From a virus (lineage: Duplodnaviria; Caudoviricetes), in IMG/VR virus record IMGVR_UViG_3300025018_000407, positions 1-30,951 of that record: 30,951 bases of DNA; one strand, given 5' to 3'. The stretch's first letter is position 1. The number at the start of each line of letters is the position of its first letter. This document shows positions 7,880 through 30,951 of this stretch, piece after piece. The position numbers were made by a program, and so were the translations under genes. The notes below the pieces were generated by a model that ran no database searches, was not told where the DNA came from, and worked only from the letters and a program-made list of their open reading frames with translations.

Positions 7880-9448
7880 ATGGCTGAAAACAATAACAAT
7901 ATTTTAACAGTAGGTTCAATCGTTAAAATGGATTTGACGATTCAACATGACGAATATCTTGAAACACAATACGCAAGAGATACATCACGCTTATTGTTTG
8001 ATGGCATTCATGCTTTGCAGAAATCCGGCAATATTAAAGATTACTTATTTGAAAAGAAAAATGAATCAAAAAATGATTATAACTTACGTGTTAAGCGTTT
8101 ATTACTTGATCCGTGGATTGATAAAATTATAACGGCTAGACAAGCGTTATTGTTTAGAAAGTCAATCATAAGAGAATTGATTTCCGAATTAAAAGAATAT
8201 ACTGAAAACGTTGACTTAAAAGGAACATCTATAGATTCCTTTATGGAAAATCAGTCAAAACAAGCGCAAATTGATGGTATCCGGTGGATATTAGTAGATA
8301 TGCCTCAACGTATTCTTGATGAGCAAGGTAATTTAAAACCGTTGACCGCATTACAAGAAAAACAATTAAACTTTCGCCCCTTTATGGAATGTATACCGGC
8401 AAATGTTGTAATTGATTGGGAATTTGGTGAAGATAAAAAACTATTATGGGTGGTCATGGAATTAAATATTAAAATGGCTAGGAGTATTGAAAACATTGGC
8501 AGAAAACCGGAAATTAGAAAACAATATAAAGTATGGACAAGAAATTATTGTGTTGTTTATGAAGAAGTAAAAAAAGGAACGCAATATGATATAATGCAGA
8601 ATACAAAAAATGATTTGATTACACTGCCTACGCAAACGAATACGGACAAAGAGTATAAAATTATTAGTATTCAATTAAATATGTTAAGTGAAATTCCATT
8701 AGTGCCTTTGTTTGGTGTTAAACGCAGTGAAGCAAGCGGAGACCCAATTTGTAAGAATATTCTGCAACATGTTATTTTACTAATGAATAAAAATAGTGTT
8801 ACCGATCATTTTGAAGAAAAAGCGGCGCATCCGGTTCCTTATGCAATCAGTAAAAAACCACCGGAAAAGATAGATAGTTGGAATGGTATTTGGATACCAA
8901 ACACAGCCGACGCGAGTGAACATTCTATTGGTCAAACGCAAATAGGATATTTAGAACCAACCGGAGCCAGTTTTTCGGTAATAAAAGAAACCATTAAAGA
9001 TATTACTTATAAAATATTATCTATTTCCTTAGCGCAAAATAGAAAAGAATCGTCACAAGTGCAATCAAGTGATTCTCAAAAAGAAGATAGAAAAATATTT
9101 AGTTCATCCTTATATAGCACATCATTACAGATTGAAGAAACGGAAATTAGGTGCTGGAATTTAATGGCAAAATGGCTGGGAAAAGAAACGGGAGTGGTTG
9201 AATTAACTTATAGCCGTGATTTTGATGACAAAGAAATAGCGGTTGAAATGATAAATTCATTACGTGATTTAGTAACGAGTTATTTACTGCCTAAGAAAAC
9301 GTTATGGGAATTATTGATTAAAAATGAAATATTACCGGACGATTTTGATTTTGATTTAGCGGAGTTGGAAATTTCAAATCAGATTAATGCCGAAAGCGGT
9401 ATCAATACCGGCAATATAATTCTAGGAGATGAAAATGATGAAGTATAA
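7880..9448 (+). CDS. Portal protein (DUF4055/SPP1-like)
   Basis: 522 aa after terL; ENVDLKG, GIRWILVDMP, IPLVP, GYLEPTG, YSRDF motifs. Confidence 0.9.
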   Translation: MAENNNNILTVGSIVKMDLTIQHDEYLETQYARDTSRLLFDGIHALQKSGNIKDYLFEKKNESKNDYNLRVKRLLLDPWIDKIITARQALLFRKSIIRELISELKEYTENVDLKGTSIDSFMENQSKQAQIDGIRWILVDMPQRILDEQGNLKPLTALQEKQLNFRPFMECIPANVVIDWEFGEDKKLLWVVMELNIKMARSIENIGRKPEIRKQYKVWTRNYCVVYEEVKKGTQYDIMQNTKNDLITLPTQTNTDKEYKIISIQLNMLSEIPLVPLFGVKRSEASGDPICKNILQHVILLMNKNSVTDHFEEKAAHPVPYAISKKPPEKIDSWNGIWIPNTADASEHSIGQTQIGYLEPTGASFSVIKETIKDITYKILSISLAQNRKESSQVQSSDSQKEDRKIFSSSLYSTSLQIEETEIRCWNLMAKWLGKETGVVELTYSRDFDDKEIAVEMINSLRDLVTSYLLPKKTLWELLIKNEILPDDFDFDLAELEISNQINAESGINTGNIILGDENDEV

Positions 9449-9911
9449 TAATTTATTACTATTTTTAATAATAACAATATTATCACTTAATTTAAAATGT
9501 GCAACATATACGGAGCGTGAATTTATTATTGAAAATCCAAAAATGGCGGTGATTACCGATATTGCCAGTAATAATATTCAAGCCAATCAACAATTGAATT
9601 GGAATTTAGGAATAGAAGCAATTCCGGTGCAGGGAATACCCTCCGCCAATACCTCATTAAGTAATAACGGAGTATTAGACGCGCATAAAGTTACAATTAA
9701 AATGGCAACGGATGGCGTATTGATTATTCAATCATTAGCCAGTCGTAATATCGGAGTTGACATTGCAGAATTACTGGTAAATTCAGTGAAAACCGTAGAT
9801 CATCCGTTTGGCAATTTAACAGTAAAAGAAAATGGCACTGCAACATTTGAACACGTGGAAAATCAAATTGGAGAAATACCATTAGAAAATAAGAAAGGAT
9901 TATTTTGGTAA
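9435..9911 (+). CDS. Signal-peptide-bearing beta-rich protein, putative head accessory protein
   Basis: AGGAG at 9424-9428 favours ATG 9435 or 9438; N-terminus KYNNLLLFLIITILSLNLKC-A. Confidence 0.7.
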   Translation: MMKYNNLLLFLIITILSLNLKCATYTEREFIIENPKMAVITDIASNNIQANQQLNWNLGIEAIPVQGIPSANTSLSNNGVLDAHKVTIKMATDGVLIIQSLASRNIGVDIAELLVNSVKTVDHPFGNLTVKENGTATFEHVENQIGEIPLENKKGLFW

Positions 9912-9917
9912 ACGATT

Positions 9918-11210
9918 ATGAAACTATTATCTACTTTTACGCTTTTGTTTTTAACGGCATTAATTTCACAAAGTCAAAATGTATTTCGTCCTGATTATCA
10001 ACAATTTCAAGATGACCAATATCACTCAGGAAATGAAGAATTACGAACATCCAATGCTATTATTTTATTCCAAGATGCTATTGAAATAGATAATGAATTT
10101 GACTGGGATTACAATGTAATCGGATCCGCTTCACGCATATTAAATTCAACAAATTCTGCAATTGATTTAATCATTGGTACAACAATGGCGGAATCAATAG
10201 AGCGTATTACACGCAAACAATTTAGTATACCAATCGGTAAATCAGCACGGGTAAATACCGCTTTTATTGCCAACGCAACTAAGAACGGATTAGTACAAGA
10301 GATAGGATTTGCAAATAATAATAATGGCGGTTTCTTGCGAATCAATGAAAATGGTTTTCATTTTATTCACCGGAATATAGCATCCGGCACGGTTACTGAA
10401 ACTACTTATACGCTGGGAGAATCAACTAATCTTTCAATCACAGACCGTTTTAATACCGCGCAAAGTTATTATAACAAATTAGATTTAACTAATAAAGTGC
10501 ATGTATTAACGCAGGAATTTCAATATTTTGGAGGCGGACGTATAAGACAAGGTTTTATCTTGGACGGTAAAATCATTTACATGAATGAAATCAATACAAA
10601 TAATATAACGTCTGAATCCATACTGAAAACAGTACGTTTGCCATTGTATTATAAAATAGTCAATTCCAGTACAACTAATAATGCCAGTACATTATCTTGT
10701 CTTGCATCTTCTTTGCAGATTGACGGCTCTTATGAAATCAGAAAATTTATGTCAACCGTTTCAAACGGCTCTGTAATTCGCAACGCTACCACTGAATTGG
10801 TTCCGGTATTGGCAATACGTCCTGCAATTAAAAATGAGCATGATTTATTTAATAAAAGGCTTATTAGTATTGAATCATTATTTTCACTGAGCGATACCCG
10901 CAGGGCATTGATTCAGATTGAACAAATATTAGATTCGAGTTTAATTAATGTGGAAAATTGGGGAAAACCTCATCATTATTCTGCTGTTGAATATGCTTCC
11001 AGTGTTACGCAAGTAATCAGCAGTAAAAGAAAATTATTGTTTTCTGAAATGATAAATGTTGACGATGTAAAGGGTACTAATAACTTACAATTACCTAAGA
11101 TCAGCCTTGATTCACGGAATACACAAGATGAAATCTTTTTAATCTCTGCAAAAATTATTGAGGGTTCAACAAGCGGATTTTCAATATCTGCTAACATTAT
11201 AGAGGAGTAA
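9918..11210 (+). CDS. Signal-peptide-bearing putative virion structural protein (beta-sandwich/lectin-like)
   Basis: MKLLSTFTLLFLTALISQS-Q; motifs RKQFSIPIGKS, GFANNNNGGF, YFGGGRIRQGFILDG, LPLYYKI recalled from a widespread phage structural family. Confidence 0.7.
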   Translation: MKLLSTFTLLFLTALISQSQNVFRPDYQQFQDDQYHSGNEELRTSNAIILFQDAIEIDNEFDWDYNVIGSASRILNSTNSAIDLIIGTTMAESIERITRKQFSIPIGKSARVNTAFIANATKNGLVQEIGFANNNNGGFLRINENGFHFIHRNIASGTVTETTYTLGESTNLSITDRFNTAQSYYNKLDLTNKVHVLTQEFQYFGGGRIRQGFILDGKIIYMNEINTNNITSESILKTVRLPLYYKIVNSSTTNNASTLSCLASSLQIDGSYEIRKFMSTVSNGSVIRNATTELVPVLAIRPAIKNEHDLFNKRLISIESLFSLSDTRRALIQIEQILDSSLINVENWGKPHHYSAVEYASSVTQVISSKRKLLFSEMINVDDVKGTNNLQLPKISLDSRNTQDEIFLISAKIIEGSTSGFSISANIIEE

Positions 11211-11214
11211 AAAG

Positions 11215-11594: not shown

Positions 11595-12407
11595 ATGCCT
11601 GAATTTAAATTAAATGAAAAAGGTTTCTTAGTTGATGAAAAGGACAATCAAATCAAAATTGGTGAAGACACCGTGCAATTACAAGGTTATTTACCGCAAG
11701 CAAAAGTAGATGAGATTGTGCAAACGCGATTGAAGAATAAAGATGCTGAATTGGATGAGAAAAAAAAGAAATTGAAATTATTGGAAGATGAAATCAAAGT
11801 TTTTAATTCTCAACCGGAGAAATCTCCGGCGGTTCAGCAGTTGTTGGAACAAAAACAAAAAGATTTTCAAACGATGCAATTGGCTTTGCAGAATGCCGAA
11901 AAATCAGCACAAGAAGCGGTAAGCGTTCAATTACAGAATGCAAAAGAACAAGCAACTAATTTTGAAAAGTTGTATATGGCAGAAAAAAATCAACGTGTAA
12001 AAGATCAAGTTGAAAATTTGATATTAAGCAAAACGGGTAGTATGTTTATGAATGCGAAAAAAGATGTACTGCCGGCACTCTTATCAAATTGGAAACGTGA
12101 ACCAAAATTAGATGTGGCTGGTAAACCGATTGAAAATCAATTTGTGGATTTATTTGAAATCGAATATTACGACAAAGATTCAAAGACTAAGAAGTCAGGT
12201 AAATTTGAAGTAGAAAAAGCCGTACAATTGTTTTATGAAAATCCTGAAAATGAATATTATCGTTCAGGCAAGATACCACATCAAGGCGGTGGTGGAGGTA
12301 TAGGAAACTTAGTTACACCGCTACAACAAACAGGATATATTAGTCCTGTGCAGAAAATAACCGCAGGTCTTCAAAATATGAAACTCGGTGACACTATTAC
12401 CGGATAA
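11595..12407 (+). CDS. Capsid scaffolding protein
   Basis: Long charged coiled coil, Gly run, C-terminal SPVQKITAGL helix; directly before the capsid gene; no protease gene seen. Confidence 0.85.
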   Translation: MPEFKLNEKGFLVDEKDNQIKIGEDTVQLQGYLPQAKVDEIVQTRLKNKDAELDEKKKKLKLLEDEIKVFNSQPEKSPAVQQLLEQKQKDFQTMQLALQNAEKSAQEAVSVQLQNAKEQATNFEKLYMAEKNQRVKDQVENLILSKTGSMFMNAKKDVLPALLSNWKREPKLDVAGKPIENQFVDLFEIEYYDKDSKTKKSGKFEVEKAVQLFYENPENEYYRSGKIPHQGGGGGIGNLVTPLQQTGYISPVQKITAGLQNMKLGDTITG

Positions 12408-12469
12408 ATAATGACTGAACCTTGCGGCTAAACTAAAAAGAAAAAGAAACAGGAAAGGAAATTTTCAAA

Positions 12470-13408
12470 ATGGCCAGTCAAACATTATCGGAAGCCGCAA
12501 AACTAATTAATAATCAAGTGATTCAAGGTGTCGTAGAAGACGTAATTACGACTAACCCCATTTTTAATTTTTTGCCGTTCAAAGGCTATACAGGTCAAGC
12601 GATTGTTGTTAATCGTGAAGACGCTTTAGGCGATGCCGGATTTTATGCTGTGGGCGCCACAATTACACATAAAGGCGCGGCAACATTCACGCAATATTCT
12701 TACTCGGCAGTTTCGTTAATTGGCGATGTTGAAATGAACGGTTTGGTGCAAGCACAATCGCAAAGTGCAGGTACGAATCAAACTGCAATTGAAATTAGTT
12801 CTAAATCAAAACGTTGTGGAAGATTATTCCAAAACGGTATGGTGTCGGGAACAGGTGTATCGCCGGATATGCACTCCCTGCATACATTAGTTGACTCGAA
12901 TCAATATACGACACCATCCGCCGGACAGGCGGTAAGTTTTACATTACTAAGAACGTTAAAAGATTTGGTAAAATCAAAAGATGGTCAGGTAGATTGGTTA
13001 ATGGCTCCAGGCAGAACACTAAGAAGCATTCAAGCATTATATGATGCGCTTGGAGGAACAACTCCGATGCATGTCATTGAACTAACATCCGGACAAAAGC
13101 AGTCCGTACTACTGTTTGAAGGCACTCCTGTATTCCAAAATGACTGGATGCCGGTAACAGAAACCGCGAATGGCGCGGCATTAACAGGCGGTGCATTGAA
13201 TTCAATTTATGCCGGAGTATGGGATGACGGCTCCGGTAAGATTGGTGTGAGTGGTATCCATCCTGAAAGTGTGCCGGCTGGTATTGTGGTTGAATATGTC
13301 GGCAAGCAAGAAGATAAAGACAATGATCAATACCGCGTAAAATGGTATACTAATTTTGTCAGCATGAACCGGAAAGGTATTGCAAGACTAACAAGTATTA
13401 ACAACTAA
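12470..13408 (+). CDS. Major capsid protein (HK97 fold)
   Basis: MASQTLSEAAKL...GVVE...LPF...NRE start and YRVKWY...IARLTSI end; 312 aa after the scaffold; strong SD. Confidence 0.92.
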   Translation: MASQTLSEAAKLINNQVIQGVVEDVITTNPIFNFLPFKGYTGQAIVVNREDALGDAGFYAVGATITHKGAATFTQYSYSAVSLIGDVEMNGLVQAQSQSAGTNQTAIEISSKSKRCGRLFQNGMVSGTGVSPDMHSLHTLVDSNQYTTPSAGQAVSFTLLRTLKDLVKSKDGQVDWLMAPGRTLRSIQALYDALGGTTPMHVIELTSGQKQSVLLFEGTPVFQNDWMPVTETANGAALTGGALNSIYAGVWDDGSGKIGVSGIHPESVPAGIVVEYVGKQEDKDNDQYRVKWYTNFVSMNRKGIARLTSINN

Positions 13409-14616: not shown

Positions 14617-14622
14617 CATTCG

Positions 14623-14691: not shown

Positions 14692-14719
14692 ATCTTATTT
14701 TAAAAGGGTACTAAGATGA
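14639..14719 (+). CDS. Putative 26-aa leader peptide MFFTFLPTVINVLNASSESYFKRVLR
   Basis: GAGGAGG 6 nt upstream of ATG 14639; TGA overlaps the next ATG (ATGA). Confidence 0.35.
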   Translation: MFFTFLPTVINVLNASSESYFKRVLR

Positions 14720-15240
14720 CAACATTGGACACAACGGTTGCCACGCTGACTGCAAACTCTTATGCCACACTTGCAGAATTAGACGCTTATTTTGATTCCG
14801 ATATTGCGTTTAAAGTAATATGGGATGCGTTTACTTCAACCGTTAAAACACAAAGAGCAATTGCCTCAACTCGTGCAATTGATTCTTTAAAGTATAATGG
14901 TTTTAAATATAAAAATAATTCTGAACAAATATTAGAACATCCTAGATGGCAAGATTACCCGTATCATGTCACTACTATCAATCCAAAAATTAAACAAGCG
15001 CAAGCGGAAATGATTAAATTACAATATGAAGATCAAGCAATAACCGGAACCGGAAAGAGTAATTCAGAGCAAATCATTAGTAGTGTTGACGTTTTTCAAA
15101 CGGTGAAAGTGAATTTTGAAAATGGTTTGCCGGAAACATCCAGTAATAAGCAACAGTTTTCCGGAGCAAGCGTTCAAAGGATTAAAGCATTATTAGCGAA
15201 TTATTTATTTGACAATTCATCTGTTTTAGTATGGGAATAA
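14716..15240 (+). CDS. Head-tail adaptor (DnaT-like-annotated family)
   Basis: ANSYATLAELDAYF, ILEHPR, IKQAQAEM, LLANYL motifs. Confidence 0.85.
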   Translation: MTTLDTTVATLTANSYATLAELDAYFDSDIAFKVIWDAFTSTVKTQRAIASTRAIDSLKYNGFKYKNNSEQILEHPRWQDYPYHVTTINPKIKQAQAEMIKLQYEDQAITGTGKSNSEQIISSVDVFQTVKVNFENGLPETSSNKQQFSGASVQRIKALLANYLFDNSSVLVWE

Positions 15241-15244
15241 TAAA

Positions 15245-16294
15245 ATGGTTCCTTTCTCTCTGCAAGATTATTTAATTCGCAGGCATATTATAGCCGAATC
15301 ATTTTCAAACGGAGTAACGAAAGAGTTGATTGAAATATTATTCAAAGCACAAAAACAAGTGCAAGATCATATACGCAATCAAAAAGCCGGAAAAATGACA
15401 AAAACAACAATGCAAAAAATTAACGTTGAAATCAATTCCGCATTAAAATTTATTAGTGAAGAATATACGAATAAATTAAATAAAGCACAAATTGAAATGA
15501 TAAAGGACGAATATAACAAACTGAAAAAAACCTTGCGGGGTAATTTAGGAAAATCAGTAAAAGAATCCAATTATATATTGCCTGTTAAACGCATTCAAGC
15601 AATATTAGCAACACCATCCGGCGGTCGGTTTGTGCAGGATTATATTAAAGCGCACGTTAATAGTTTACGAACAAGAATACGGACACAACTAACCATTGAT
15701 ATTATTGAATCTTCATCAATGGAAAAGACAGCGCGTAATCTTAGAACACAATTTGATATTAGCCGACGCGGCGCCAATTTGATTTCACGCACTTCTATTA
15801 TGGATGCCAGTAACAGAGCCAATGAAGAAGTATTCAAAGAAAATACCGATATTATTAAAGGATATAGATATGTTGCCACGTTAGATAATAGAACAACACT
15901 AATATGCGCGGGGCTTGACGGTAAAGAAGTAAGATTAAGGGAAAATTTACCTCAACCGCCATTGCATCCGCTTTGCAGGAGTTTGATTGCTCCTATTTTA
16001 TTTGACGATCAATTTGAGGGGTTAAAAAGAATTGCCGTAACGAATGTGGAAAGAAAAAAAGTAAAACATAGAGATGGTACAACTTCAACAAAATTTAGAA
16101 ATGTTAGCGGTAAAGATGTTTCGGCTAGTACTAATTTTTCTAAATTTCTTGAGAGGCAGCCTGCAAAGTGGCAACGGGAATATTTAGGAAAGACCAGATA
16201 TGAATTATATAAAGACGGCAAGTTATCTTTGCAGGAAATGGCTACCAATTCAAAATCGTTTACAATAGAAGAATTAAAAAAGAAAGTAAGTTGA
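15245..16294 (+). CDS. Minor head morphogenesis protein (SPP1 gp7 / Mu gpF family)
   Basis: ISRTS, YVATLDNRTTLICAGLDG, PPLHPLCRS. Confidence 0.93.
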   Translation: MVPFSLQDYLIRRHIIAESFSNGVTKELIEILFKAQKQVQDHIRNQKAGKMTKTTMQKINVEINSALKFISEEYTNKLNKAQIEMIKDEYNKLKKTLRGNLGKSVKESNYILPVKRIQAILATPSGGRFVQDYIKAHVNSLRTRIRTQLTIDIIESSSMEKTARNLRTQFDISRRGANLISRTSIMDASNRANEEVFKENTDIIKGYRYVATLDNRTTLICAGLDGKEVRLRENLPQPPLHPLCRSLIAPILFDDQFEGLKRIAVTNVERKKVKHRDGTTSTKFRNVSGKDVSASTNFSKFLERQPAKWQREYLGKTRYELYKDGKLSLQEMATNSKSFTIEELKKKVS

Positions 16295-16354
16295 ATCAAT
16301 TTAAGTTTAAAACTATTATTTATTTGTATAAAATATTAAAAAGAAAGTAAGTTA

Positions 16355-16762: not shown

Positions 16763-16764
16763 TC

Positions 16765-17187: not shown

Positions 17188-17272
17188 TAAAAATTGAAAA
17201 TATAAAATGAAATTTTGTAGTTAATCTTATTTTTAAAATCAACTATAAAATTTAAACTTGAAAGTATAGAAC

Positions 17273-17719: not shown

Positions 17720-17733
17720 TAAGGAGAAGTAAA

Positions 17734-20040: not shown

Positions 20041-22991
20041 TGCCTGGCGAATTAAAACCTCTCAATTTAGAATTTGGTGTAGACGATAATGGCTCCTTGA
20101 AATTAACTAAGATTGAAGGAACCCTCGCCAAAGTAGGCAATCGCTTAGACAGCGTATCTAAAAAAACATCCGCTTACGATGGTATTTTAACACGCTGGAA
20201 ACAATCTCTACGTTCAATTACTTCTGTTCTTTTTTCCGTGCAATCTGCAATCGTAGCCGTAGTCGGAGCATTAGCACTTAAAAAAGGCATTCAAGAATTT
20301 GCCTCTTTTGAATCGGGGGTTGTATCGCTTGGCAGAGTAACGGATAGAACATTTGCAGAAATTCAAAATGACATTCTTAGTTTAAATAGCACATTGGGTT
20401 CACCGTCTGAATTAGTAGCAGGCTATTATAATGCGATTTCATCGGGAGCCACCGATACTAAAAGTGCGTTGGATTTAGTTACCGCTTCCGCAAAAGCCAG
20501 TACTATATCCGGCATAGATCAAGGGCAAACGTTAAAAGGTCTTGCGCAACTAATGACCGCTTATAACGGGGAAATTAAATCCGCTACACAGTCCGCCGAC
20601 TTATTATTTGCAATCGAAAAAGAAGGCATTACTACTTTTGCAGAAATCATACCGCACATCGGTTCCGCCGCCGCCGCTTCTAAATTATTAAATATTAGTT
20701 CCACTGAATTAGCCGGAGCCATATCGTTAATTACACAGACTGCGGGTGAAACATCTAAAGCATTTACGCAATATCGTGGAATTGTTACAGGACTGATAAA
20801 ACCGTCTGAGAGTTTGTTAAAAATATTTGAAGAATTAAACGTTGCTAACGGTGAACAACTTATATCACAATTAGGCTTAGTAGGTGGATTGAAGGCAATT
20901 ATATCCAAAACAGATGGCTCTACTATAGCACTTGGTAAGTTGTTTGAATCCAGTGAAGCCATTAGAGGTGTTGTAAGTTTAATGGTAAATGATTTTGATA
21001 AATTATCTACCAAAATAAAATCAATTGAAGAAAATACTAAAGGTCTGGATGAATTTTGGAAAGATTTTTTAGCATCATTAGAAGGAAAATGGAATACTCT
21101 AACGAATACCATTAGTAAAATCATTATAGTTTTAGTTAAAATTGGTGATATTCAATTTAAGAATTTAGTAGACACAATTCAATCATTAGCGGATAGCACT
21201 CTAGTTTGGCTGCAAGAAAATGAAAAAATTATCAAAGCGAATTTAGATAAGACAATAAGGTTTATTGGTGATTCTGCAAAATGGCTTTATGAAAACTTTA
21301 ATTTATTTATAACGGGAGTCAAAGCGTTTATTGCTTATAATCTGCCTGGTATTATTGCTTCTCTGCCTGGATTATTTACATTAGCCACAACAGCGGCGAA
21401 ATCACTTTCAGCGATATTATTTGGTTTGGTTTTACGAAATCCGTTTGGATTATTATTAGCGGGTCTTGTAATATTTATTGATTACGTTCGGCAACATGAA
21501 AAAGACTTTGAACCGTTAATCCGTTTCTGGATTGAATTTAAATCGGTTGCTTTGCAGGCGTTTGAAACAGTAAAACTTGGATTGAAAAGTATTTATATTA
21601 CAGGTAAATTCTGGTTTGAATTATTATTCAATTATATTTCAAAAAGTATAAAAGATGCCTCAAAAGAAGTCAATTTTTTAATTGATAATTTTAATATAGC
21701 CGCTTCATTAAGTGCAGGAAAATTAAAACAAATTCCAAGATTAGAATTAAACATTGGTGATTTTCCTGAACCAAACTTAGAAAAATCTTTAACAAAAGCA
21801 CTAAATGATTCTAATCAAAACCTGCAAGATATAATTAAGAATACACTTGCAGAGCAAGACGCTTTAACCGATAGATTATTAAACGGAACTAAGAATAATT
21901 TGGAAAGCGTATTTTCTGATTTTACAATTCCAACTAATAATTGGGATGCAGTCTTAGACAGATTTACAACTATGTTTAATGAAATAAATGAAAAGGCAAC
22001 GGATACCGTTGCAAAAACAGCACAAACAGCATTGACCGGATTTACAAAAGAAGAAATTGAAAAAGCGGAAATGTTTTTAAATAATATATTAGTTAGTTCC
22101 CAAACACCCATGCAACAATTTGAAGCATTGCAATCCGAAATATTTTCAGCGATGGAAAAGACAAATGTATCTGCAAAAGATCAGGCACAAATTATGCAAT
22201 TCTTAGCCGGAGAATATAAAAAAGCATTTCGGGAAATGTTGGAATCATCAAGGGATTTTGAAGCAGGAGCATTGAGAGCATTTTTAAAAATTAAAGAAGC
22301 CGCTACCGATACGGCATTTCAAATTGAAGATGCTATTGTTGGTTCATTTAATGATATTCGCGCTGAATTTATTGATTTATTTTCAGAGGGAAATTTTGAT
22401 TTGAAATCCGTTATTAGTAATTTATATAAACGGCAACTGGGTGTATTTTTTGACCGGCAAATTGCCGCTCCGGTAGCAAGTCTAGCCGCTTCTAATTCAA
22501 GTTTAGTTGGTGGAGGTGGAGGATTTTTTAATATATTGAAAAGTATTTTCCCGTTTGACACCGGTGGCATTATAAAAAAGAAAATTCAAAAGTTTGACAG
22601 TGGAGGCATTATAAACAATTACACTACTAATGAAATTCAAAAGTTTGACACCGGTGGCATTATAAAAAAGAAAATTCAAAAGTTTGACAGTGGAGGTTTC
22701 ATGTCAACCGGATTATCCGGTATTATAAAACAACCTACGCTTATTAGTTTAGTTGACGGGATTAACTCAAGCAGAGGAGAAGCGGTGGTTCCATTGCCGG
22801 ACGGAAAATCAATTCCGGTTAAAAATATGGATGCAAAAACGAATAATCAATCATTGCAGACAATTACAAATAATTATTTTAATAATCGTGTGACCGTGAT
22901 TGCCGATGACCCGAAAACGTATGCGGATATTACAGACAAACAGCAAAAAAATACATTTCGTTTATATCAAAGACAATTATTAAATGCATAA
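20040..22991 (+). CDS. Tape measure protein (TP901-type core)
   Basis: 983 aa, helical, Ala/Leu-rich; EKEGITTFAEI core, central hydrophobic stretch, C-terminal FDxGG and GEAVVPLPDG motifs. Confidence 0.95.
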   Translation: MPGELKPLNLEFGVDDNGSLKLTKIEGTLAKVGNRLDSVSKKTSAYDGILTRWKQSLRSITSVLFSVQSAIVAVVGALALKKGIQEFASFESGVVSLGRVTDRTFAEIQNDILSLNSTLGSPSELVAGYYNAISSGATDTKSALDLVTASAKASTISGIDQGQTLKGLAQLMTAYNGEIKSATQSADLLFAIEKEGITTFAEIIPHIGSAAAASKLLNISSTELAGAISLITQTAGETSKAFTQYRGIVTGLIKPSESLLKIFEELNVANGEQLISQLGLVGGLKAIISKTDGSTIALGKLFESSEAIRGVVSLMVNDFDKLSTKIKSIEENTKGLDEFWKDFLASLEGKWNTLTNTISKIIIVLVKIGDIQFKNLVDTIQSLADSTLVWLQENEKIIKANLDKTIRFIGDSAKWLYENFNLFITGVKAFIAYNLPGIIASLPGLFTLATTAAKSLSAILFGLVLRNPFGLLLAGLVIFIDYVRQHEKDFEPLIRFWIEFKSVALQAFETVKLGLKSIYITGKFWFELLFNYISKSIKDASKEVNFLIDNFNIAASLSAGKLKQIPRLELNIGDFPEPNLEKSLTKALNDSNQNLQDIIKNTLAEQDALTDRLLNGTKNNLESVFSDFTIPTNNWDAVLDRFTTMFNEINEKATDTVAKTAQTALTGFTKEEIEKAEMFLNNILVSSQTPMQQFEALQSEIFSAMEKTNVSAKDQAQIMQFLAGEYKKAFREMLESSRDFEAGALRAFLKIKEAATDTAFQIEDAIVGSFNDIRAEFIDLFSEGNFDLKSVISNLYKRQLGVFFDRQIAAPVASLAASNSSLVGGGGGFFNILKSIFPFDTGGIIKKKIQKFDSGGIINNYTTNEIQKFDTGGIIKKKIQKFDSGGFMSTGLSGIIKQPTLISLVDGINSSRGEAVVPLPDGKSIPVKNMDAKTNNQSLQTITNNYFNNRVTVIADDPKTYADITDKQQKNTFRLYQRQLLNA
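22553..22696 (+). repeat. Exact 54-bp direct repeat (90-bp period) in the tape measure 3' end
   Basis: 22553-22606 identical to 22643-22696; encodes FDTGGIIKKKIQKFDSGG twice. Confidence 0.95.
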
Positions 22992-23007
22992 TCATTAAGG
23001 AAATATT

Positions 23008-23898
23008 ATGTCAATCATTACCGGATTCCATGAAGAACTTTTCCCTACCGATATTTCTTTCGGGTCAACTTGTATTTCTCATTTGCAAACAACTAAGAAT
23101 AAAACTAAAAGTGGTTTCAGGTCTGTAAACATTGATTGGGATGAATTCTCAGACAAATTTGATGTGTCGTATGGTGTCAAAACATTAACACAAGCACAAG
23201 CACTACGTGATTTTTTTCATGCCAGAAAGACTAATGCTTTCGGATTTCGATTCTTGGATTGGTTTGATTATTCTGCAAGCGATTCATTCATAGCACAAGC
23301 AACCGGTCTGGCTCCATCAACCTATCAACTAAGAAAGTTATATTACAATACCGGAGCAAATATAGTTAGTACGGTGATTGAAGTTAGCGGGGCGAATACA
23401 TTACATACCACCGACGGCTCCTCCTTATTTGAAAATATGCTGGAAGATATGAAAATATATGTTCGTGGTTTTACAACGGCACATAATAATAACTTATTAA
23501 CTGTAGTAAGTGTATCTCCAGATGGTGCAACGTTGACGGTATTGGAAACAATAGTAATAGAAGCCGCCGGAAATACCATTACGATTTCGCAAGCGGTTGA
23601 TACTAAGAATGTTTTTAAACCCGTTCACGGCGGTTTATTTACACCTCTTTCGCAAGCGGTAGTAATTAAGGTAGATGGTTCAACTCATAATAATTGGACG
23701 CTTAATTATAAGAATGGTCAATTCATTTTTGATGCTTCTGTGCCTGCTCAATATGCGCATATTACCGCTTCCTTTGAATTTCATAAGGCGGTTGCTTTTG
23801 AATCCAATGAACTGGGATGCCGGTTTGACAGTGACCGAATCTTAAGCGTTGAGAATATTATTTTGGAAGAATTAAATTTATCGGAGTTATTAGTATGA
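23008..23898 (+). CDS. Distal tail protein, GTA-like DUF2460/TIGR02217 family, with insertion
   Basis: FHEELFPTDISFGS, FFHARK...GFRFLDWFDY, ITASFEF motifs. Confidence 0.9.
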   Translation: MSIITGFHEELFPTDISFGSTCISHLQTTKNKTKSGFRSVNIDWDEFSDKFDVSYGVKTLTQAQALRDFFHARKTNAFGFRFLDWFDYSASDSFIAQATGLAPSTYQLRKLYYNTGANIVSTVIEVSGANTLHTTDGSSLFENMLEDMKIYVRGFTTAHNNNLLTVVSVSPDGATLTVLETIVIEAAGNTITISQAVDTKNVFKPVHGGLFTPLSQAVVIKVDGSTHNNWTLNYKNGQFIFDASVPAQYAHITASFEFHKAVAFESNELGCRFDSDRILSVENIILEELNLSELLV

Positions 23899-24761
23899 GG
23901 ACAATTAACGCAACCAGACAACTAAGATTAAATAGAGCGGTAACAACCGAAGCGCTCTGTATATTGATTACATTGCAGAATACTACGGTTATTGCGTTGA
24001 CCGATCATAATAAAAAAATTACGAATAACGGTATTGATTATTTGCCGGAGGAAAGTTTTTTTCCTTCTAAAATTGAGGGTAGTAATTCTATGCAGGATAA
24101 TTCTAAAATGGATTTTGCGGGGATTATTTCTACCGTTATTACTAAGTTGGATTTACATAGTGGTGTTTGGGATGGAGCGCAAATTAAGATTTTGTATATT
24201 GATTATATGCGTCCGGATTTAACGGCTATTATAATTAAACAAGGAAAAATCGGTAAAGTCAGTGTATCAGATTCCGGTTTTACTTGTGAATTTTTAGGAT
24301 TAAAAGATTATTTTCGTCAAAAAATAGGAAGAAATTTAATACCCTCTTGTGATGCACAATTTGGAGATTCGCGTTGTGGAAAAGATTTGACCGAATTAAA
24401 TAATAAACAGACAGGCACGGTATTATCATCCGTAACTAATATTACAATTGTAAGCAATGATATTGCCACAACTACGCATACTTCAACGAATGAAAACAAC
24501 AATTTTTATAATTTTGGCTGGATTCAATGGACAAGCGGAAATAATAACGGGAGAATATCCAATATTAAATTACATACATTCGCAACCGGAGAGCATACAT
24601 TTACATTTTTTCTACCTACGAATTTTAACATTCAAAATGGGGATTCGTTTGATATTGTTTCCGGTTGTGATAAAGCGTGGTCAACTTGCAGAGAACGGCA
24701 TAGTAATAACCGTTTTACGGGTTTTCCTTATTTGCCTGGTAATACTTTGTATTCTAATTAA
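23895..24761 (+). CDS. Baseplate hub protein, DUF2163/TIGR02218 (BR0599) family, four-Cys Fe-S-type motif
   Basis: LTDHN, CDAQFGDSRC, WTSGNNNG, GCDKAWSTC...FTGFPYLPG. Confidence 0.92.
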   Translation: MRTINATRQLRLNRAVTTEALCILITLQNTTVIALTDHNKKITNNGIDYLPEESFFPSKIEGSNSMQDNSKMDFAGIISTVITKLDLHSGVWDGAQIKILYIDYMRPDLTAIIIKQGKIGKVSVSDSGFTCEFLGLKDYFRQKIGRNLIPSCDAQFGDSRCGKDLTELNNKQTGTVLSSVTNITIVSNDIATTTHTSTNENNNFYNFGWIQWTSGNNNGRISNIKLHTFATGEHTFTFFLPTNFNIQNGDSFDIVSGCDKAWSTCRERHSNNRFTGFPYLPGNTLYSN

Positions 24762-24764
24762 AAG

Positions 24765-24850
24765 TAATTAAGTAATTTTAATTAAATGATAAAAATAAAG
24801 GATAATTTAATTAAGTAATTTTAATTAAATGATAAAAATAAAGGATAATT
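24765..24850 (+). repeat. Perfect 43-bp tandem duplication including the RBS
   Basis: TAATTAAGTAATTTTAATTAAATGATAAAAATAAAGGATAATT at 24765-24807 and 24808-24850. Confidence 0.95.
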
Positions 24851-24852
24851 AA

Positions 24853-27800
24853 ATGGTTTTACCTTTTTTATTAGCTACATTAGGAAGCTTTGCCTTCGGA
24901 CCCGTAGGGTTTGCATTAGGTTCACTTGCAGGCTTAGCCTTGCAAGGAAGACCCAAAACTTACGGGGCTCGTTTGAATGATTTATCTGTTCCAACAACTA
25001 ATTACGGTTCACCAATACCGCAAGGTTATGGCACATTTCCGGTTGTTGGTATTCCGGTTTGGTCTCCTGGTAAAAAAGAAGTAAAAAAATCAAGAACAGT
25101 GGGAGGATTTTTATTTTTTGGCGGAACAGATATATTTAATTATTATTATTTTTACACGGGAACCGAAATATTAACATCGCATGAAATTAACGGTATTGTA
25201 GCCGTTTATATTAACGATAATAAAGTAGCGGATTTTTCCGGAGCGGTTGTAACAACCGCAATGGAACAATCAACAGGTAATTTTTTAAAATATGTGCATT
25301 TTAATTATGGCAGTACCCCCAGCACCGCCTCTCCGACTGCAATCAAAACATTAGGCGGAGGTATTACTAATAAAGATGAAGTTCCTATTTATCCTGGTTG
25401 TGCTTATGTTGATTATGATTTATTTCCTTTGGAACAATTTTCAAACGCTGTGCCAACATTTAAATATATTGTTTCACGCAATGCTAATATTAGTGCTGAT
25501 AGTTGGACGAATGTTCCTGGCATACCCTGGCAGGGTCGTTCGTTATTTGGAGTAGCAAGACTGAAAAAAGAAGTCTATATTATTATGGGATTTTCCAATA
25601 CGGCGGATTTAATGGACGTTTGGAAATCATCCGATTTAATTAATTGGGAACGTGCTCCCAGTGTAGGTAATCCACAACTAGGATGGGATGCTACAATATT
25701 TGCACAACAAATACGGTTTACCAACCTATATAATTTTCGTGCTGTCAATTGGGTAACTAATGAATTATTAGTTTTATTCGCGAATCAAGACCCGATTGAA
25801 TATATAGTATGTTATGGCGGTGAAACAACCAACGGTAAATCTTGGATTCAACATTCAGAAACGGAATTAGGTAGTTTTATTATTGGTATTGCTTTTAACG
25901 GTAAGCGCTGGTTTGATGTTGTGGCATTAAGCCAAACTGCGTTTCCTAAACATTCTTACGGCATGTGCGTAGCGCGAGATTCTTCTATTTCTTCGAGTGA
26001 TATTATTTTATTATATGGCGGCGAGAGTATACCTGGTTACAGTGCAACAATCAACCCACCAGCCGGAGGGCATAACGGGGCTAACGGTGGATTTTATAAA
26101 AATTTATATTACTCAATCAACGGATTATCTTTTGCTGAAATAGCCTCCGATGGAGGAATGGATTATAGAACTAACTGCATATTAGTTGAATTCAAAGGAG
26201 AGGTATACGGTTTTGGTGGACATGTAGAACCTCCTGGAGATAGTAATATATCTAATGTAATTTATAAAAAACAACCTGGTTTTAATGGATTCTTATTGCA
26301 TAGTAATTATTTCAGAAAATTCTTTCCTGTACTATCCGCAAGTTTAGTTACTAATTCCGTGACAATAGAAAATTCAATTGTGAAAAATAATGTATTTGAT
26401 AACATCGGATTATCTGTGGTATTAAGCGGAGCGGATGGGGGTTCATTTACCGTAGCATCTATTGAAGCAGACGGCAGTAATACCAAAATTATTTTAAACG
26501 AAGCATTAACCGGAATTGTTATTACAGAAATTTATATTAATGATGCCCCGTTTAATGGTGCAATATGGACGGGTGGTGTCTGGCGTAATAAATTAGTTGT
26601 GATTATGGCGAACACAAGCGGAGGTTCATCTACTTTAAATGTATTTACCTCAAATGAAGGGCAAGTGTGGACACAAGATGCCGATCTTAGTCCAACTCCG
26701 GTAACGTATGGTTCCGGCAGTTATCCTGAATATTTTAATTTTGATGAAATTATTGCTTTATTAGGCGGTGAAAATTCTTCTCAAGCCGTACATAACGTAG
26801 TGTTACGTTCACAAACTCCCGTAACTGCTGCAAGTACAATTACATTATCTTCTATTGTTTCTGATATTTGGGAAAATCAATTATTGCGTTCCGCCGATTT
26901 ATTAGATGTTTCGGATATTACAACTGTTTTACTGCACGGGGCTCCTAACTATGATAATTCTTCTCCGGCGGATTATTTGGAACAATTATGTATTGCTTTC
27001 GGCATAGATGTAATTGAAACGGATAAAGTATATTTTCGTCAACGTAAAAATGCGGATACCGGAATAACAATCACAACTACTGAATTGGCTACTTATGCAG
27101 AGAATGAACAAATACCGGATATTATTCATTCCATCATTACTAATGATTTAAGTGTTGCGGTAGAAGTCAATGTTAATTATTACAATGTGTCTAATGATTG
27201 GAAAATTGATAGCGCTACCGCCAGAATACAAACTAATAAAATAGACGGCACAATTGAAATAGACAATCAAAATAAATTAGATGTAAATTTGAGTGTGTGC
27301 ATGACGCCGGAACAAGCACGGACGACCGCGCATTTTATATTATGGAATCAATTAGTAAGTCGTAAAAAAATACCTGTTCGATTAGGCATAAATAGAATTG
27401 CACTTGAGGAAGGCGATGTCATTACTTTGCAAACAGATGACGGTAATTTTACGGTGCGATTGGAAGAATTTTCTAATATTTCCAAGAATATTTTTGAATG
27501 GCAAACCAGTTTAGAAAACGTAACCTTGTATACCGTGCCGGATAGTGAGGTAGGTTCTCTGCCTGTCAATAATACACAAGACAGCCCTCTAATTGATTTT
27601 AATCTGAACAGTCAATTTTTGGATATTCCTTCTTTATTTAAAAATGAAAATAATGAATATGGGTTTTTTATTGCTTCTAATTTTTCAAGAGAATCTGAAT
27701 CTAAATTTAATGGTTATGAAGTGTACAGACAAACGGATCCAAATATTAATCATTATGAATTAATTGGTAGTTATAACAATCCTGGTATTATAGGAATTAC

Positions 27801-28608
27801 ACAAGATAATACCGCATTGATTAGTAATGCCAGTGAATTTCTTTTGGATAATGCCAGCACTTTGACGATTGATTTAGAAACCGGAAATTTACCTGAACTA
27901 ATTACTATGCGGGATATATACCGCTATCAAGGATACTTTTATTACGGCGGTGAAATTATGGCATATTCAAAAGCGCAACCTTTAGGTATTTTTGCGAACC
28001 GGAAACGCTATATCTTATCTTCACTACTTCGAGGACGGTTAGGAACAGAACATAAAATCAGTACGCATACCGCAAATGATATTTTTGTTTTTCTGGAAGG
28101 ATTATCCGATATTTTTTGCGGACAATCCGATATAGGAAAAGCGATCAATTATAAAATAGTTCCAATCGGTACTGATTACGAATTGGTTGTACCGGATTCA
28201 TTTACAAATAATGCAATTCGTAGAAAACCGTTGCCGGTTTCTTTATTAAAAGCCGAAAGAAACAATAGCACATTAACATGGAAAATTACCTGGAGCGGCA
28301 GATCAAGATTTTCTTTAGGATTTAATGATAGCCTGTTTAAAGTCATGTCAGAAAATGAAGAACATTATAAGATTGAATTTTATAATTCAACATATACTAA
28401 TATTTTATTTGACACATTTATAATGTTTCCGAAACGTGTACAAGGTATTGAAACAATCCCTACTTTTTTATTATCTTCCAGTATGCAGATTAGTATATTT
28501 GGAAGTATTCAAAATACTTTGTATTTGCGTGTATATCAATTAAGTGATGATTATACGTTAAATAGTTTTTTAAGTGAAACAAAACAATTAACGGCTACTG
28601 TACTATAA
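24853..28608 (+). CDS. Tail tip / central fibre protein (GTA megatron / gpJ-like) with Kelch-like propeller insert
   Basis: GARLNDL...YGSPIPQGYG, PIYPGCAY...LEQFSNAVP, LEEGDVI, LLRGRLGTE motifs; central GG/W-spaced repeats. Confidence 0.88.
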   Translation: MVLPFLLATLGSFAFGPVGFALGSLAGLALQGRPKTYGARLNDLSVPTTNYGSPIPQGYGTFPVVGIPVWSPGKKEVKKSRTVGGFLFFGGTDIFNYYYFYTGTEILTSHEINGIVAVYINDNKVADFSGAVVTTAMEQSTGNFLKYVHFNYGSTPSTASPTAIKTLGGGITNKDEVPIYPGCAYVDYDLFPLEQFSNAVPTFKYIVSRNANISADSWTNVPGIPWQGRSLFGVARLKKEVYIIMGFSNTADLMDVWKSSDLINWERAPSVGNPQLGWDATIFAQQIRFTNLYNFRAVNWVTNELLVLFANQDPIEYIVCYGGETTNGKSWIQHSETELGSFIIGIAFNGKRWFDVVALSQTAFPKHSYGMCVARDSSISSSDIILLYGGESIPGYSATINPPAGGHNGANGGFYKNLYYSINGLSFAEIASDGGMDYRTNCILVEFKGEVYGFGGHVEPPGDSNISNVIYKKQPGFNGFLLHSNYFRKFFPVLSASLVTNSVTIENSIVKNNVFDNIGLSVVLSGADGGSFTVASIEADGSNTKIILNEALTGIVITEIYINDAPFNGAIWTGGVWRNKLVVIMANTSGGSSTLNVFTSNEGQVWTQDADLSPTPVTYGSGSYPEYFNFDEIIALLGGENSSQAVHNVVLRSQTPVTAASTITLSSIVSDIWENQLLRSADLLDVSDITTVLLHGAPNYDNSSPADYLEQLCIAFGIDVIETDKVYFRQRKNADTGITITTTELATYAENEQIPDIIHSIITNDLSVAVEVNVNYYNVSNDWKIDSATARIQTNKIDGTIEIDNQNKLDVNLSVCMTPEQARTTAHFILWNQLVSRKKIPVRLGINRIALEEGDVITLQTDDGNFTVRLEEFSNISKNIFEWQTSLENVTLYTVPDSEVGSLPVNNTQDSPLIDFNLNSQFLDIPSLFKNENNEYGFFIASNFSRESESKFNGYEVYRQTDPNINHYELIGSYNNPGIIGITQDNTALISNASEFLLDNASTLTIDLETGNLPELITMRDIYRYQGYFYYGGEIMAYSKAQPLGIFANRKRYILSSLLRGRLGTEHKISTHTANDIFVFLEGLSDIFCGQSDIGKAINYKIVPIGTDYELVVPDSFTNNAIRRKPLPVSLLKAERNNSTLTWKITWSGRSRFSLGFNDSLFKVMSENEEHYKIEFYNSTYTNILFDTFIMFPKRVQGIETIPTFLLSSSMQISIFGSIQNTLYLRVYQLSDDYTLNSFLSETKQLTATVL

Positions 28609-28620
28609 AAGGAAATAACC

Positions 28621-29961
28621 ATGACAACTCCAAAATGGTCTTTTAATGAATTTACAAATCAAGATATTGATATTGCTACGAATTTGAATACGATTATCAA
28701 CGATATTGATTTATTACTTTATGGTATTTCTATCAATAATACCACTACGATACCTCCGGTCTCTCCGGCAAGCGGAGACGTGTATATAGTTGATGGGGAT
28801 GAATATATTATTACAGCCGTTAGTACGGTGGATAATTCATTCACGGTAGCAGGAGATCAATCAAGTAAATTTACGGTAGGAAAATTATTTATTATAAGGA
28901 GCGGAATACATCAAGGCAGTTGGACGGTAGTATCTTCTACTTATACCACCAGCACAAAAATCATAGTCGTGCAAGCAATAGGAAGCGCAACGGTAGCAGG
29001 AACCATAATGATAGCAAACGGGGTATGGAATGGTCATGTAAATGATATTACTATTTATCTAAATGGCTCTTGGAGATATATTAGTCCGGTTCAGCGCACT
29101 TTATTTTTTGATATTGCGCTTAATGATTATATTTATTACGAAGGGAATTCATTATCTTGGGTTACAGGCGTTCCGGTATCCGCGCATACACATTCATTAG
29201 TTGATATTACCGATGTAACTGCAACGGCTGGAGAAATAAACTTATTGGATTTGGGTGGATTAACTGCTGGACAAGTTTTGCAGGCAACCACCGCTACTAC
29301 CGCCGCTTGGCAGGGAATTACCGCCGGCAGTTTACCTACCGCTATTGATGCCGCTAAGATTGCCGACGGCTCGGTATCGAATATTGAATTTGAATATTTA
29401 GACGGGGTAACAAGTGCTATTCAAACTCAAATTGATTCTAAGGCTGCAAAAGACAGAATTGAAGACACTACCGCGGATACTTTTATTGATGTAAATAATG
29501 TGGATGATAATAATATTTATTTTGTATGTAATTCAATTCCGGTTATGCAATTGGATGAAGGAACAGGAGTGCCTTTAATTGGTTTTGGTATTGCCCCGAC
29601 TTCTAATATTCATTATAGAAGCACAACCGGAAGCATTGAATTTAAAATGGAAAGTACACAAGATGTACCCATACAGTTTACATTTGCTAACTCACAAAAT
29701 ATTTGGGTATTAACCGCAGATGCAAATTCTTTTTTAATATCATTAGTTGGTTTAGGTAGTGTATTATCCATTGATTCAACAGGAAAAGTTACATTTTTAA
29801 ATAATATTAGTCATGGAGGAATAACAAACTATGGCAGTAAAACGCAAGCACAAATAAATGCTTTAACCCCCGTTGAAGGTGATATTGTTTATAACTCTAC
29901 AACTAAAGATTACGAATTTTATAATGGAAGTAATTGGAATGGAATGGCAAGAGTAAATTAA
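28621..29961 (+). CDS. Tail fibre with N-terminal DUF2793-like domain
   Basis: PPVSPASGDVYIV...GVWNGHVNDI...WRYISP; HTH trimer motif; EFEYLDGVTSAIQTQID fibre repeat; C-terminal EGDIVYNSTT...YNGSNW. Confidence 0.85.
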   Translation: MTTPKWSFNEFTNQDIDIATNLNTIINDIDLLLYGISINNTTTIPPVSPASGDVYIVDGDEYIITAVSTVDNSFTVAGDQSSKFTVGKLFIIRSGIHQGSWTVVSSTYTTSTKIIVVQAIGSATVAGTIMIANGVWNGHVNDITIYLNGSWRYISPVQRTLFFDIALNDYIYYEGNSLSWVTGVPVSAHTHSLVDITDVTATAGEINLLDLGGLTAGQVLQATTATTAAWQGITAGSLPTAIDAAKIADGSVSNIEFEYLDGVTSAIQTQIDSKAAKDRIEDTTADTFIDVNNVDDNNIYFVCNSIPVMQLDEGTGVPLIGFGIAPTSNIHYRSTTGSIEFKMESTQDVPIQFTFANSQNIWVLTADANSFLISLVGLGSVLSIDSTGKVTFLNNISHGGITNYGSKTQAQINALTPVEGDIVYNSTTKDYEFYNGSNWNGMARVN

Positions 29962-29979
29962 ATTTGAAAGGATATTAAA

Positions 29980-30231
29980 ATGAAACTTGTAAGAATTGTC
30001 TGTCTGTTGGTTTTGTGTGTTGTTTTATGCGGCGCGGTGCGGGTGCAGGCGCAGGAAAAGCGCTTATTGATTATTCCGAAACGTTCGGAGATTACTCAGT
30101 TTAAAACTCTAACGCGGGGGCAAAAAAAGGCAATCAGAAACCGTGTGGCTGCGCTTCGTATATTACGTGGTTCATCCGTTCCTATAAAAATAAATATCAA
30201 GAAGATTCAGCGTAAAGGAGGAAAACGATAA
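29980..30231 (+). CDS. Small, very basic protein with signal peptide
   Basis: MKLVRIVCLLVLCVVLCGAVRVQA-Q; K/R-rich mature part; AAGGA SD. Confidence 0.75.
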   Translation: MKLVRIVCLLVLCVVLCGAVRVQAQEKRLLIIPKRSEITQFKTLTRGQKKAIRNRVAALRILRGSSVPIKINIKKIQRKGGKR

Positions 30232-30951
30232 TGAGATACTTACTTCCTCTTTTATTTATTTGTCGGTTTGCAACCGCACAAATAACACTTGTTGAAAAAG
30301 CACCGGATTTTATTCCTTCCGCTTCACCTTATCTGTTTGAAGCGAACGATAGTGATTTTTCCGCTTACGTAAAAAGTGACGGTTCAGCCGCTTTTCAGAA
30401 TGATGGGCTGATGGTTGAATTTCAGCCCTTTATCGGCGGGGGTTGGGAAGATACTAATTATCTGATTCAGGAAGCGGAAATATTCAGTGGCAGTAATCCG
30501 GTTGCAGTTGCTAATCAAATCCATTTTGCAAGTCCTTATACGTTTGCAGAGAGTTTATTAGTATACACCACTTACACGGAACTAAGATACCGTATGGTGT
30601 TTAATTCCACCGCCGGTCAGGACTTGGCGGGAATTATCCCCTCAACCAGTGATCTTATATTCGGTGGTTATAACTTTACGGTAGATGATTTAGCGGGTTC
30701 AACCGTGATTGCTTATGCCAGCATTGAGGATACCAGTGGAACTGTGATTGACCCAAGCGGATATGCAATTGCTTATAAAATCGAAATTAGAAATGCAACC
30801 GATACCTTGTTTGTTGAGCCCGCATTTGGTATAAAGGATACCGGTGAAACTGTATATGGTGAACTAATATGGTCTGATTATGGTATTTTAAAACGATGGT
30901 CTGCCGAAACATGGAATGATTTAATTTGGATTGACCCTGTAATTAGTGATA
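30231..30951 (+). CDS. Signal-peptide-bearing acidic beta-rich protein, truncated by the window end (absent from the ORF track)
   Basis: AAAGGAGG SD, TAATG overlap; hand translation MRYLLPLLFICRFATA-QITLVEK...LIWIDPVISD stays open for 240 codons. Confidence 0.85.
   Translation, partial: MRYLLPLLFICRFATAQITLVEKAPDFIPSASPYLFEANDSDFSAYVKSDGSAAFQNDGLMVEFQPFIGGGWEDTNYLIQEAEIFSGSNPVAVANQIHFASPYTFAESLLVYTTYTELRYRMVFNSTAGQDLAGIIPSTSDLIFGGYNFTVDDLAGSTVIAYASIEDTSGTVIDPSGYAIAYKIEIRNATDTLFVEPAFGIKDTGETVYGELIWSDYGILKRWSAETWNDLIWIDPVISD

Follow-up and report, generated by a model that had tools for sequence, protein, structure and literature searches.

Leader-bearing proteins among the late genes of an uncultured groundwater phage: candidates for export and cleavage before attachment to the particle

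The virus record IMGVR_UViG_3300025018_000407 raises the question why proteins with signal-peptide-like leaders are encoded among the head and tail genes of a tailed phage, as the particles of such phages are, by standard teaching, completed in the cytoplasm. The window analyzed here is the whole 30,951-bp contig of this uncultured, low-GC groundwater phage. An earlier note on it had described five leaders, on the genes starting at positions 9435, 9918, 14065, 29980, and 30231 (genes are named by these positions in the following), and had proposed that accessory surface proteins are exported and attached to the particle afterwards. All five N-termini are present at these coordinates. Furthermore, a contig found by an exact-pattern scan (L092) is identical to the last 127 bases of the window and extends 6.3 kb further; it adds two leader proteins of 571 and 105 amino acids (aa), giving seven in all. 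Window and L092 together comprise 37.3 kb of sequence from a genome that is incomplete. The best reading of the locus is export, cleavage, and then attachment to the particle at lysis. Of this proposal, the export is supported by the predicted starts and cleavage sites, and a link to the virion was found for 9918 and for the 571-aa fibre-like protein. Periplasmic residence and attachment are steps that we infer, the latter with about an even chance of being correct.

A leader was called if the best uncharged 8-mer reached a Kyte-Doolittle (KD) hydropathy of at least 2.6 and started by residue 18, the net charge of the n-region was at least 1 and the uncharged run comprised at least 9 residues. 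This rule is passed by 7 of the 30 late genes of the window and L092 versus 21 of 1,165 non-redundant open reading frames (ORFs) of control phage loci (Fisher p = 2.5e-6). Across 30 different threshold settings, the number of flagged genes ranged from 5 to 9, and p was at most 1.2e-4. The five leaders of the earlier note all pass and show a basic n-region, an uncharged hydrophobic core and a site fitting the -3/-1 rule. These features are shared by 7/7 leaders, the two weakest being 9435 and 30231. In 30231 the uncharged run is limited to 9 residues by an arginine at position 13, and the leader is lost if a run of at least 10 is demanded. For 9435, the starts 9435 and 9438 have equal Shine-Dalgarno (SD) energies and the cut may be ILS/L or LKC/A; the leader itself was confirmed, whereas the cut ahead of alanine originally given is one of two options. 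The statement that the core genes are leaderless holds for portal, capsid, scaffold, tube, and tape measure, which fail the rule at every setting, but the hub (23895) is flagged if the core is allowed from residue 20, as is the megatron (24853) at a KD of at least 2.2.

In all seven genes, the best predicted SD sequence among the in-frame starts belongs to the leader start and not to a start downstream of the hydrophobic segment. Six of the seven leader starts have an SD energy of -5.4 kcal/mol or stronger; that of 9918, at -2.8, is weak, yet this start is just 6 nt from the preceding stop codon. No in-frame start follows the leader within 70 codons in 9918 and 14065, while 29980 and the 105-aa protein (L092:3966) have weaker ones just past the leader (-4.0 to -5.4). 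A glutamine at +1 of a site allowed by the -3/-1 rule is found in five of the seven leaders (P = 7e-5 given the number of allowed sites) and is lacking in 9435 and 14065. This so-called Q-rule is described as a mark of signal peptidase I substrates, with a mean of 71% in Bacteroidetes and 77% in Ignavibacterium (PMC5837995, accessible part). The lipobox [LVI][ASTVI][GAS]C matches 0/7 leaders, in agreement with the earlier note, the c-region cysteine of 9435 standing in a non-standard context, and a twin-arginine motif was not found in the leaders.

Because of the basic n-regions, the +1 glutamine sites and the best-supported starts, the hydrophobic N-termini are taken as export signals. On this basis Sec export and cleavage by signal peptidase I are very probable, and the formation of pyroglutamate at the new N-terminal glutamine is rather probable. 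A Peptidase M28 profile search for a host glutaminyl cyclase matched all 14 controls and is hence uninformative. Alternatively, the segments could be uncleaved and serve oligomerisation or membrane tethering, or be skipped by later starts, with assembly in the cytoplasm. Such an explanation would suit the hydrophobic N-termini of the cytoplasmic tail proteins hub and megatron, the short core of 30231, the ambiguous cut site of 9435 and the later starts of 29980 and L092:3966. It is made very improbable by the five glutamine sites, by the SD strength of the leader starts with no later start in 9918 and 14065, and by the relatives of 9918, as none of the 86 complete matching frames of the first 83 loci, from which 4 truncated frames were excluded, shows such a segment at any possible start.

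With respect to the mature parts, a pattern search detected no C-terminal membrane anchor, beta-barrel signal, PEP-CTERM or LPxTG motif in any of the seven proteins, and the NCBIfam results for them contain no match to a type IX secretion, outer membrane protein (OMP) or sortase family. As an anchor or onward sorting signal is missing, the mature proteins are expected to stay soluble in the periplasm. The absence of a second transmembrane segment was largely upheld, 14065 having a single borderline hydrophobic stretch past residue 35 at a KD of at least 1.6, which is gone at 1.8 and above. As regards the folding or modification in the periplasm that had been proposed, disulphide folding as the purpose of export is ruled out by 0-1 cysteines per mature part, and the motif for Bacteroidetes O-glycosylation is not enriched (9 observed versus 9.7 expected).

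The first link to the virion is provided by 9918. Residues 19-367 of its 430 aa match phrog_1645, "virion structural protein" (E = 2.8e-33), the conserved domain starting directly past the predicted cut, and 120 phage records, mostly of cyanophages, are matched. The family has no sequence relative in the PDB. As the earlier note had suggested, the mature part was compared by fold, for which a model was built from 56 sequences (predicted local distance difference test, pLDDT, 81). Its N-terminal domain is a jelly roll of the concanavalin A (ConA)/GH16 type (Z 18.5-19.0, root mean square deviation (rmsd) 2.4-2.6, 172-180 residues); residues 27-250 of the mature chain align at Z 18-19, the best match having Z 19.0 and rmsd 2.4 over 172 residues, and the second beta domain is barely covered by the fold searches. 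The catalytic motif of GH16 enzymes is ExDxE or ExDxxE. It is present in 0 of the 54 testable rows (of 56), the window reading TQEFQ, so that an active GH16 enzyme was rejected; the jelly roll of the model is likely a binding module. Matches to the whole fold come from uncultured phages, haloarchaeal tailed viruses and giant viruses. They include, over the whole length, a 418-aa protein of HFTV1 (TM score 0.65), which by length and fold appears to be gp20. The gene of HFTV1 gp20 lies directly after the capsid gene, and the protein is reported from infectious virions by mass spectrometry (MS; bioRxiv 2024.12.09.627619, accessible part). On the strength of the model, 9918 is likely a sugar-binding (lectin-like) protein of a virion family equipped with a leader. 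It is also the one protein for which the description of four leader proteins as beta-rich is supported, but this does not extend to the others, the single-sequence model of 14065 being unusable (pLDDT 33). An equivalence of 9918 with the turret head of HFTV1 was ruled out, as gp31 is a deacetylase of a different fold. The strain variants in 9918 comprise 14 synonymous and 5 non-synonymous changes, and both changes within the leader are synonymous. As a separate observation, the two-domain fold has whole-length matches in proteins of Mimivirus, Bodo saltans virus, and a Pyramimonas virus and represents an unnamed fold family across virus realms.

The homologues of 9918 were also checked for leaders. 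The family set comprises 189 loci, 188 of them with a match, in 87 clusters at 70% identity. Among the 30 loci from prokaryote genome assemblies two have a leader (L112 and L125), and applied to all loci the rule flagged L112, L125, L193, and L136. The last was removed by eye, since it has no basic n-region and shares its start with a neighbour gene, while L193 was kept as complete. Thus, a leader is found in 3 of the 87 family clusters and 84 are leaderless. All three loci are phage late regions in which the leader-bearing relative of 9918 lies among virion genes. L125 (5374-10752) is a podovirus-type contig from a Desulfobacterales bin; between its adaptor and tail stabiliser lie five late genes with leaders, which encode the relative of 9918, a phrog_6465 tail protein (E = 4.7e-14), a fibre-like protein, a post-capsid protein and a small protein resembling lipoproteins. 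In L112 a 904-aa fibre has a leader as well. In L193 (6560-8455) a leader and a small beta domain are fused to the 9918-family domain, in the second gene past the capsid gene. None of the three relatives has a +1 glutamine. A membership of 14065 or 9435 in the small beta domains of L125:5374 and L193 was rejected, as there is no profile link.

In a tree built from 36 of 88 representatives, 4 changes of the leader label are needed, and at least 3 of them fall on well-supported branches. A single clade of the leader-bearing members with 9918 is rejected by the approximately unbiased (AU) test (p = 0.0004), and a FastTree of all 88 agrees. Because the leader-bearing members do not form one clade, the leader is judged from these sequences to have been gained repeatedly in the PHROG 1645 family. 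Co-occurrence of leaders within loci (5/39 versus 28/1,143 ORFs, p = 0.004) was not relied on, as the count included the false positive L136 and omitted L193. The members of PHROG 1645 (HMO-2011 gp65 and its homologues in S-WAM2 and S-RIM8) and HFTV1 gp20 resemble 9918 in their two-domain all-beta fold and in their position among head or packaging genes, whereas the window member differs from its largely leaderless family in bearing a leader and in being fast-diverged.

A second link comes from cultured phages of Cellulophaga baltica. In the stretches examined, Q-rule leaders occur on 3/12 MS-annotated genes of phi18:3 (NC_021794; gp085-087) and on 4/12 of phi10:1 (NC_021802; gp091-094). As in the window, these leader genes are late, lie beside tail genes and have a fibre- or sugar-acting character. 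In contrast, their products have no sequence similarity to the leader proteins of the window, and the genes form one cassette, whereas those of the window are also found after the portal and after the capsid gene. No literature discussing the leaders of the phi18:3 and phi10:1 proteins was found. The coat proteins of Inoviridae carry Sec leaders and are cut by signal peptidase; a helix then keeps them in the inner membrane, and they enter the particle as it is extruded. Unlike these, the window encodes an HK97-type tailed virion, and its mature leader proteins are without a membrane helix. A paper on the export of a tailed-phage virion protein with later attachment was not found, most subscription journals lying outside the search.

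The envelope or superinfection role, which the earlier note had named as an alternative, is kept as the main rival. According to it, export and cleavage take place, but no attachment to the particle follows; the proteins would instead act late on the envelope by masking receptors, excluding superinfection or loosening surface glycans, or would serve at lysis as soluble decoys or helpers. The export signals, which are the strongest part of the data, would be accounted for, a lectin fold could bind envelope glycans without a particle, and for the 83-aa basic protein 29980 such a role is likely. Phage envelope proteins with leaders have also been published. In Porphyromonas gingivalis phages, five Q-rule genes were read by the authors as modifiers of the outer membrane or envelope; like those of the window, they are phage genes of unknown function with Sec/signal peptidase I leaders and +1 glutamine, but in the accessible part of the source they are not tied to a virion protein family (PMC10367356). 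In the sources as far as accessible, signal peptides are noted in rumen Bacteroides phages (PMC5723332), and huge phages encode OMPs and sortase substrates as envelope proteins (10.64898/2026.10.24.761521). This explanation is nevertheless unlikely, if clearly worth considering. The family of 9918 is labelled as a virion protein and is mostly leaderless, and its leader-bearing members stay among virion genes; no anchor would hold the proteins in the envelope; and leader-bearing proteins are annotated from virion MS in the two cultured phages. In addition, the leader genes are co-oriented with the structural genes in one late region, as had been stated, and lie close to, or overlap, the portal, capsid, and fibre genes (gaps of -14 to 39 nt), where promoter signals are not above chance (65 observed versus 64.5 expected). 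The count of Bacteroidetes-type promoters (29 versus 20.8 in shuffled sequence) is not decisive.

The remaining leader proteins differ in what can be said about their roles. The gene 30231 is cut by the end of the window; its leader stands, and with the L092 overlap the protein has a full length of 786 aa (198+588). It matches NF033679 (DNRLRE/CBM96-like domain) below the cut-off (21.5 bits versus 34, E = 2e-4). A strain-variable patch lies near residues 561-586, within a wider variable stretch at L092:850-1210 (residues ~480-600), and among the differences listed (40 of 175 rows) 10 codons of the patch are residue-changing and 5 silent. This is the pattern that would be expected for a receptor-binding part. 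As a side observation, 13 of the 15 listed changes at L092:1087-1203 involve A, which recalls mutagenesis by diversity-generating retroelements (DGR); neither a DGR template repeat nor a reverse transcriptase for this patch was found in the 37.3 kb. The 571-aa protein (L092:1772) has 26 matches, 9 of which carry the tail-fibre chaperone Peptidase_S74 and 15 of which are leader-bearing, one of these being a near-copy. A strain variant of it (P0008, 544 aa) lacks two of the 14-aa repeats and has an extra leucine in the leader core. For 9435 no family match was obtained, the Atlas matches of 9435 and 30231 are all below 0.9, and the sole locus match of 9435 (L097, E = 7e-4) looks spurious. In a set of 1.84 billion representatives 14065 matches only itself.

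That the leader proteins form one group is true of the leaders, but 29980 fits a role in the envelope or in lysis better, and 29980 and L092:3966 probably both have such another role. A mixed set can be built on this, in which 9918, 30231, and the 571-aa fibre would be particle parts, 29980 and L092:3966 would take over the task of spanins by breaching the outer membrane at lysis, and 9435 and 14065 would serve the exported parts as chaperones or adaptors. After the cut, 29980 is a 59-aa peptide with 19 K/R and 2 D/E, and L092:3966 adjoins a 132-aa protein with a C-terminal membrane helix. Neither an endolysin nor a spanin family was found in the 37.3 kb, and a cationic phage peptide, phiKT gp28, reportedly replaces spanins. 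We consider the full division of roles improbable, as neither 29980 nor L092:3966 has a family match or a lipobox, the lysis genes may lie elsewhere in the incomplete genome, and for the large proteins the proposal overlaps with export followed by attachment.

In the preferred reading, the seven late leader proteins would be exported via the host Sec system, cut by signal peptidase I and held as a soluble periplasmic pool, with the new N-terminal glutamine capped as pyroglutamate. At lysis, the larger sugar-binding and fibre-like proteins would bind to finished particles as these cross the broken envelope. The likely benefit would be that sticky glycan-binding parts are kept away from assembling particles and that the export and capping chemistry of the host is used. 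In a wider and more tentative form, which we would rather doubt than endorse, completion of the particle outside the cytoplasm would be common among tailed phages. Their accessory adhesins of head and tail would be secreted by Sec, cut and capped in the periplasm, and attached to virions during lysis; the widespread PHROG 1645 lectin family, with its fold relatives in haloarchaeal tailed viruses and giant viruses, would have been redirected to this route three or more times by leader gain; and the present phage would have moved most of its accessory parts to it.

Several points weigh against attachment to the particle. None of the proteins of this phage has been seen in a particle. The leader calls rest on the rule described above, which was fixed after the data were seen. 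The label "virion structural" of phrog_1645 is an annotation, and MS evidence for this family itself was not found in the accessible parts of the cyanophage virion proteome literature. The sequence profile of the 9918 family does not detect HFTV1 gp20, fold and length being the link between them, and in the accessible part of the source gp20 is not placed in the cryo-EM map (bioRxiv 2024.12.09.627619). In the tree, 9918 sits on a long branch with odd composition and 22-26% identity to its relatives, which makes its exact place unsure. The virion assignments of the Cellulophaga phages were taken from GenBank notes, and particles or vesicles can carry exported proteins along during purification. 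Furthermore, 9435, 14065, 29980, and 30231 have no usable relatives in the scanned collections, several relatives of the 571-aa protein resemble bacterial surface proteins with N-terminal anchors, and with a leaderless DUF2793 fibre in its tail the phage does not depend on the exported set as sole adhesin.

If attachment after export is true, it would constitute a second, extracytoplasmic maturation step which uses host export and modification enzymes, and it would offer a route for displaying periplasm-folded proteins on tailed phages. The locus provides a comparative test, as one virion-protein family occurs with and without a leader that was repeatedly gained, and the idea is directly testable in the cultured Cellulophaga phages, as Q-rule leader proteins are already on record in their virion proteomes. 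For annotation, the case suggests the caution that a signal peptide does not exclude a role in the virion.

From 5473 onward the window consists of a single co-oriented late region with head, packaging, and tail genes (Table 1).

Table 1. Features of the late region in the window and in the overlapping contig L092.
Feature	Position	Strand	Remarks
Terminase small and large subunits, portal	5473..9448	+	Context, without leaders
Leader-bearing orphan, 158 aa	9435..9911	+	14-nt overlap with portal stop; start 9435 or 9438; cut site ambiguous
Predicted leader (SQS/Q or LIS/Q cut) and PHROG 1645 virion structural protein, 430 aa	9918..11210	+	ConA/GH16-like jelly roll without GH16 catalytic motif, second beta domain
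Scaffold-like protein (from position) and major capsid protein (phrog_212)	11595..13408	+	Context, without leaders
Predicted leader (IFA/D cut) and orphan, 183 aa	14065..14616	+	Second gene past major capsid gene; strong SD
Head-tail adaptor, Mu F-like protein, closure, terminator, tail tube, chaperones, tape measure	14716..29961 (part)	+	Context
GTA-type distal tail, hub, megatron, DUF2793 fibre	14716..29961 (part)	+	Context; siphovirus-type tail
Predicted leader (VQA/Q cut) and 59-aa strongly basic peptide	29980..30231	+	Candidate envelope or lysis factor; 83 aa in all
Predicted leader (ATA/Q cut) and first 240 aa of 786-aa protein	30231..30951	+	Continues at L092:1-1767; weak DNRLRE-domain match
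Predicted leader with +1 Gln, 571-aa fibre-like protein	L092:1772-3487		Three 14-aa repeats
Predicted leader with +1 Gln, 105-aa protein	L092:3966-4283		Beside 132-aa holin-like gene

The sequencing runs carrying DNA of the window are labelled as aquifer or groundwater, and no RNA run is among those listed. In one of them (X1), possibly the sample of origin, positions 9300-14800 are present as a single piece with 2 differences; another (X2) holds longer pieces of a variant strain. For 30231, fibre, tube, and terminase no relatives were found in the scanned collections, and no prophage relative was found. The Q-rule leaders, strong SD sites and sigma-70-type promoter point to an Ignavibacteria-like or other host of the FCB (Fibrobacteres-Chlorobi-Bacteroidetes) group and not to Bacteroidia, the strong SD sites arguing for a host outside Bacteroidia and Flavobacteriia.

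Some further features of the gene map were noted. The post-portal slot (9435-11484) is occupied by 9435, 9918, and an 89-aa gene, and the Mu F-like head morphogenesis gene (15245-16294) follows the adaptor, whereas it lies directly after the portal in the capsid relatives L002 and L006. The tail tube (17734-19191, 485 aa) and the distal tail protein (23008-23898) each match their family in two stretches, and because of this split both seem to carry inserted domains. Upstream of the late region, a D12-class adenine methyltransferase (578-1339) and a 129-aa early protein with an N-terminal membrane helix (2157-2546) are encoded. Finally, past the late genes, L092 contains AT-rich palindromes (5262-5390), followed by a sigma-70 promoter close to the consensus (at 5566) and by a perfect direct repeat of 40 bp (5914-5953 and 6303-6342), which includes an SD ahead of small ORFs. 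The region of this repeat has many related copies in the sequencing runs, and L092:5250-6466 looks like a repeated early-gene cassette.

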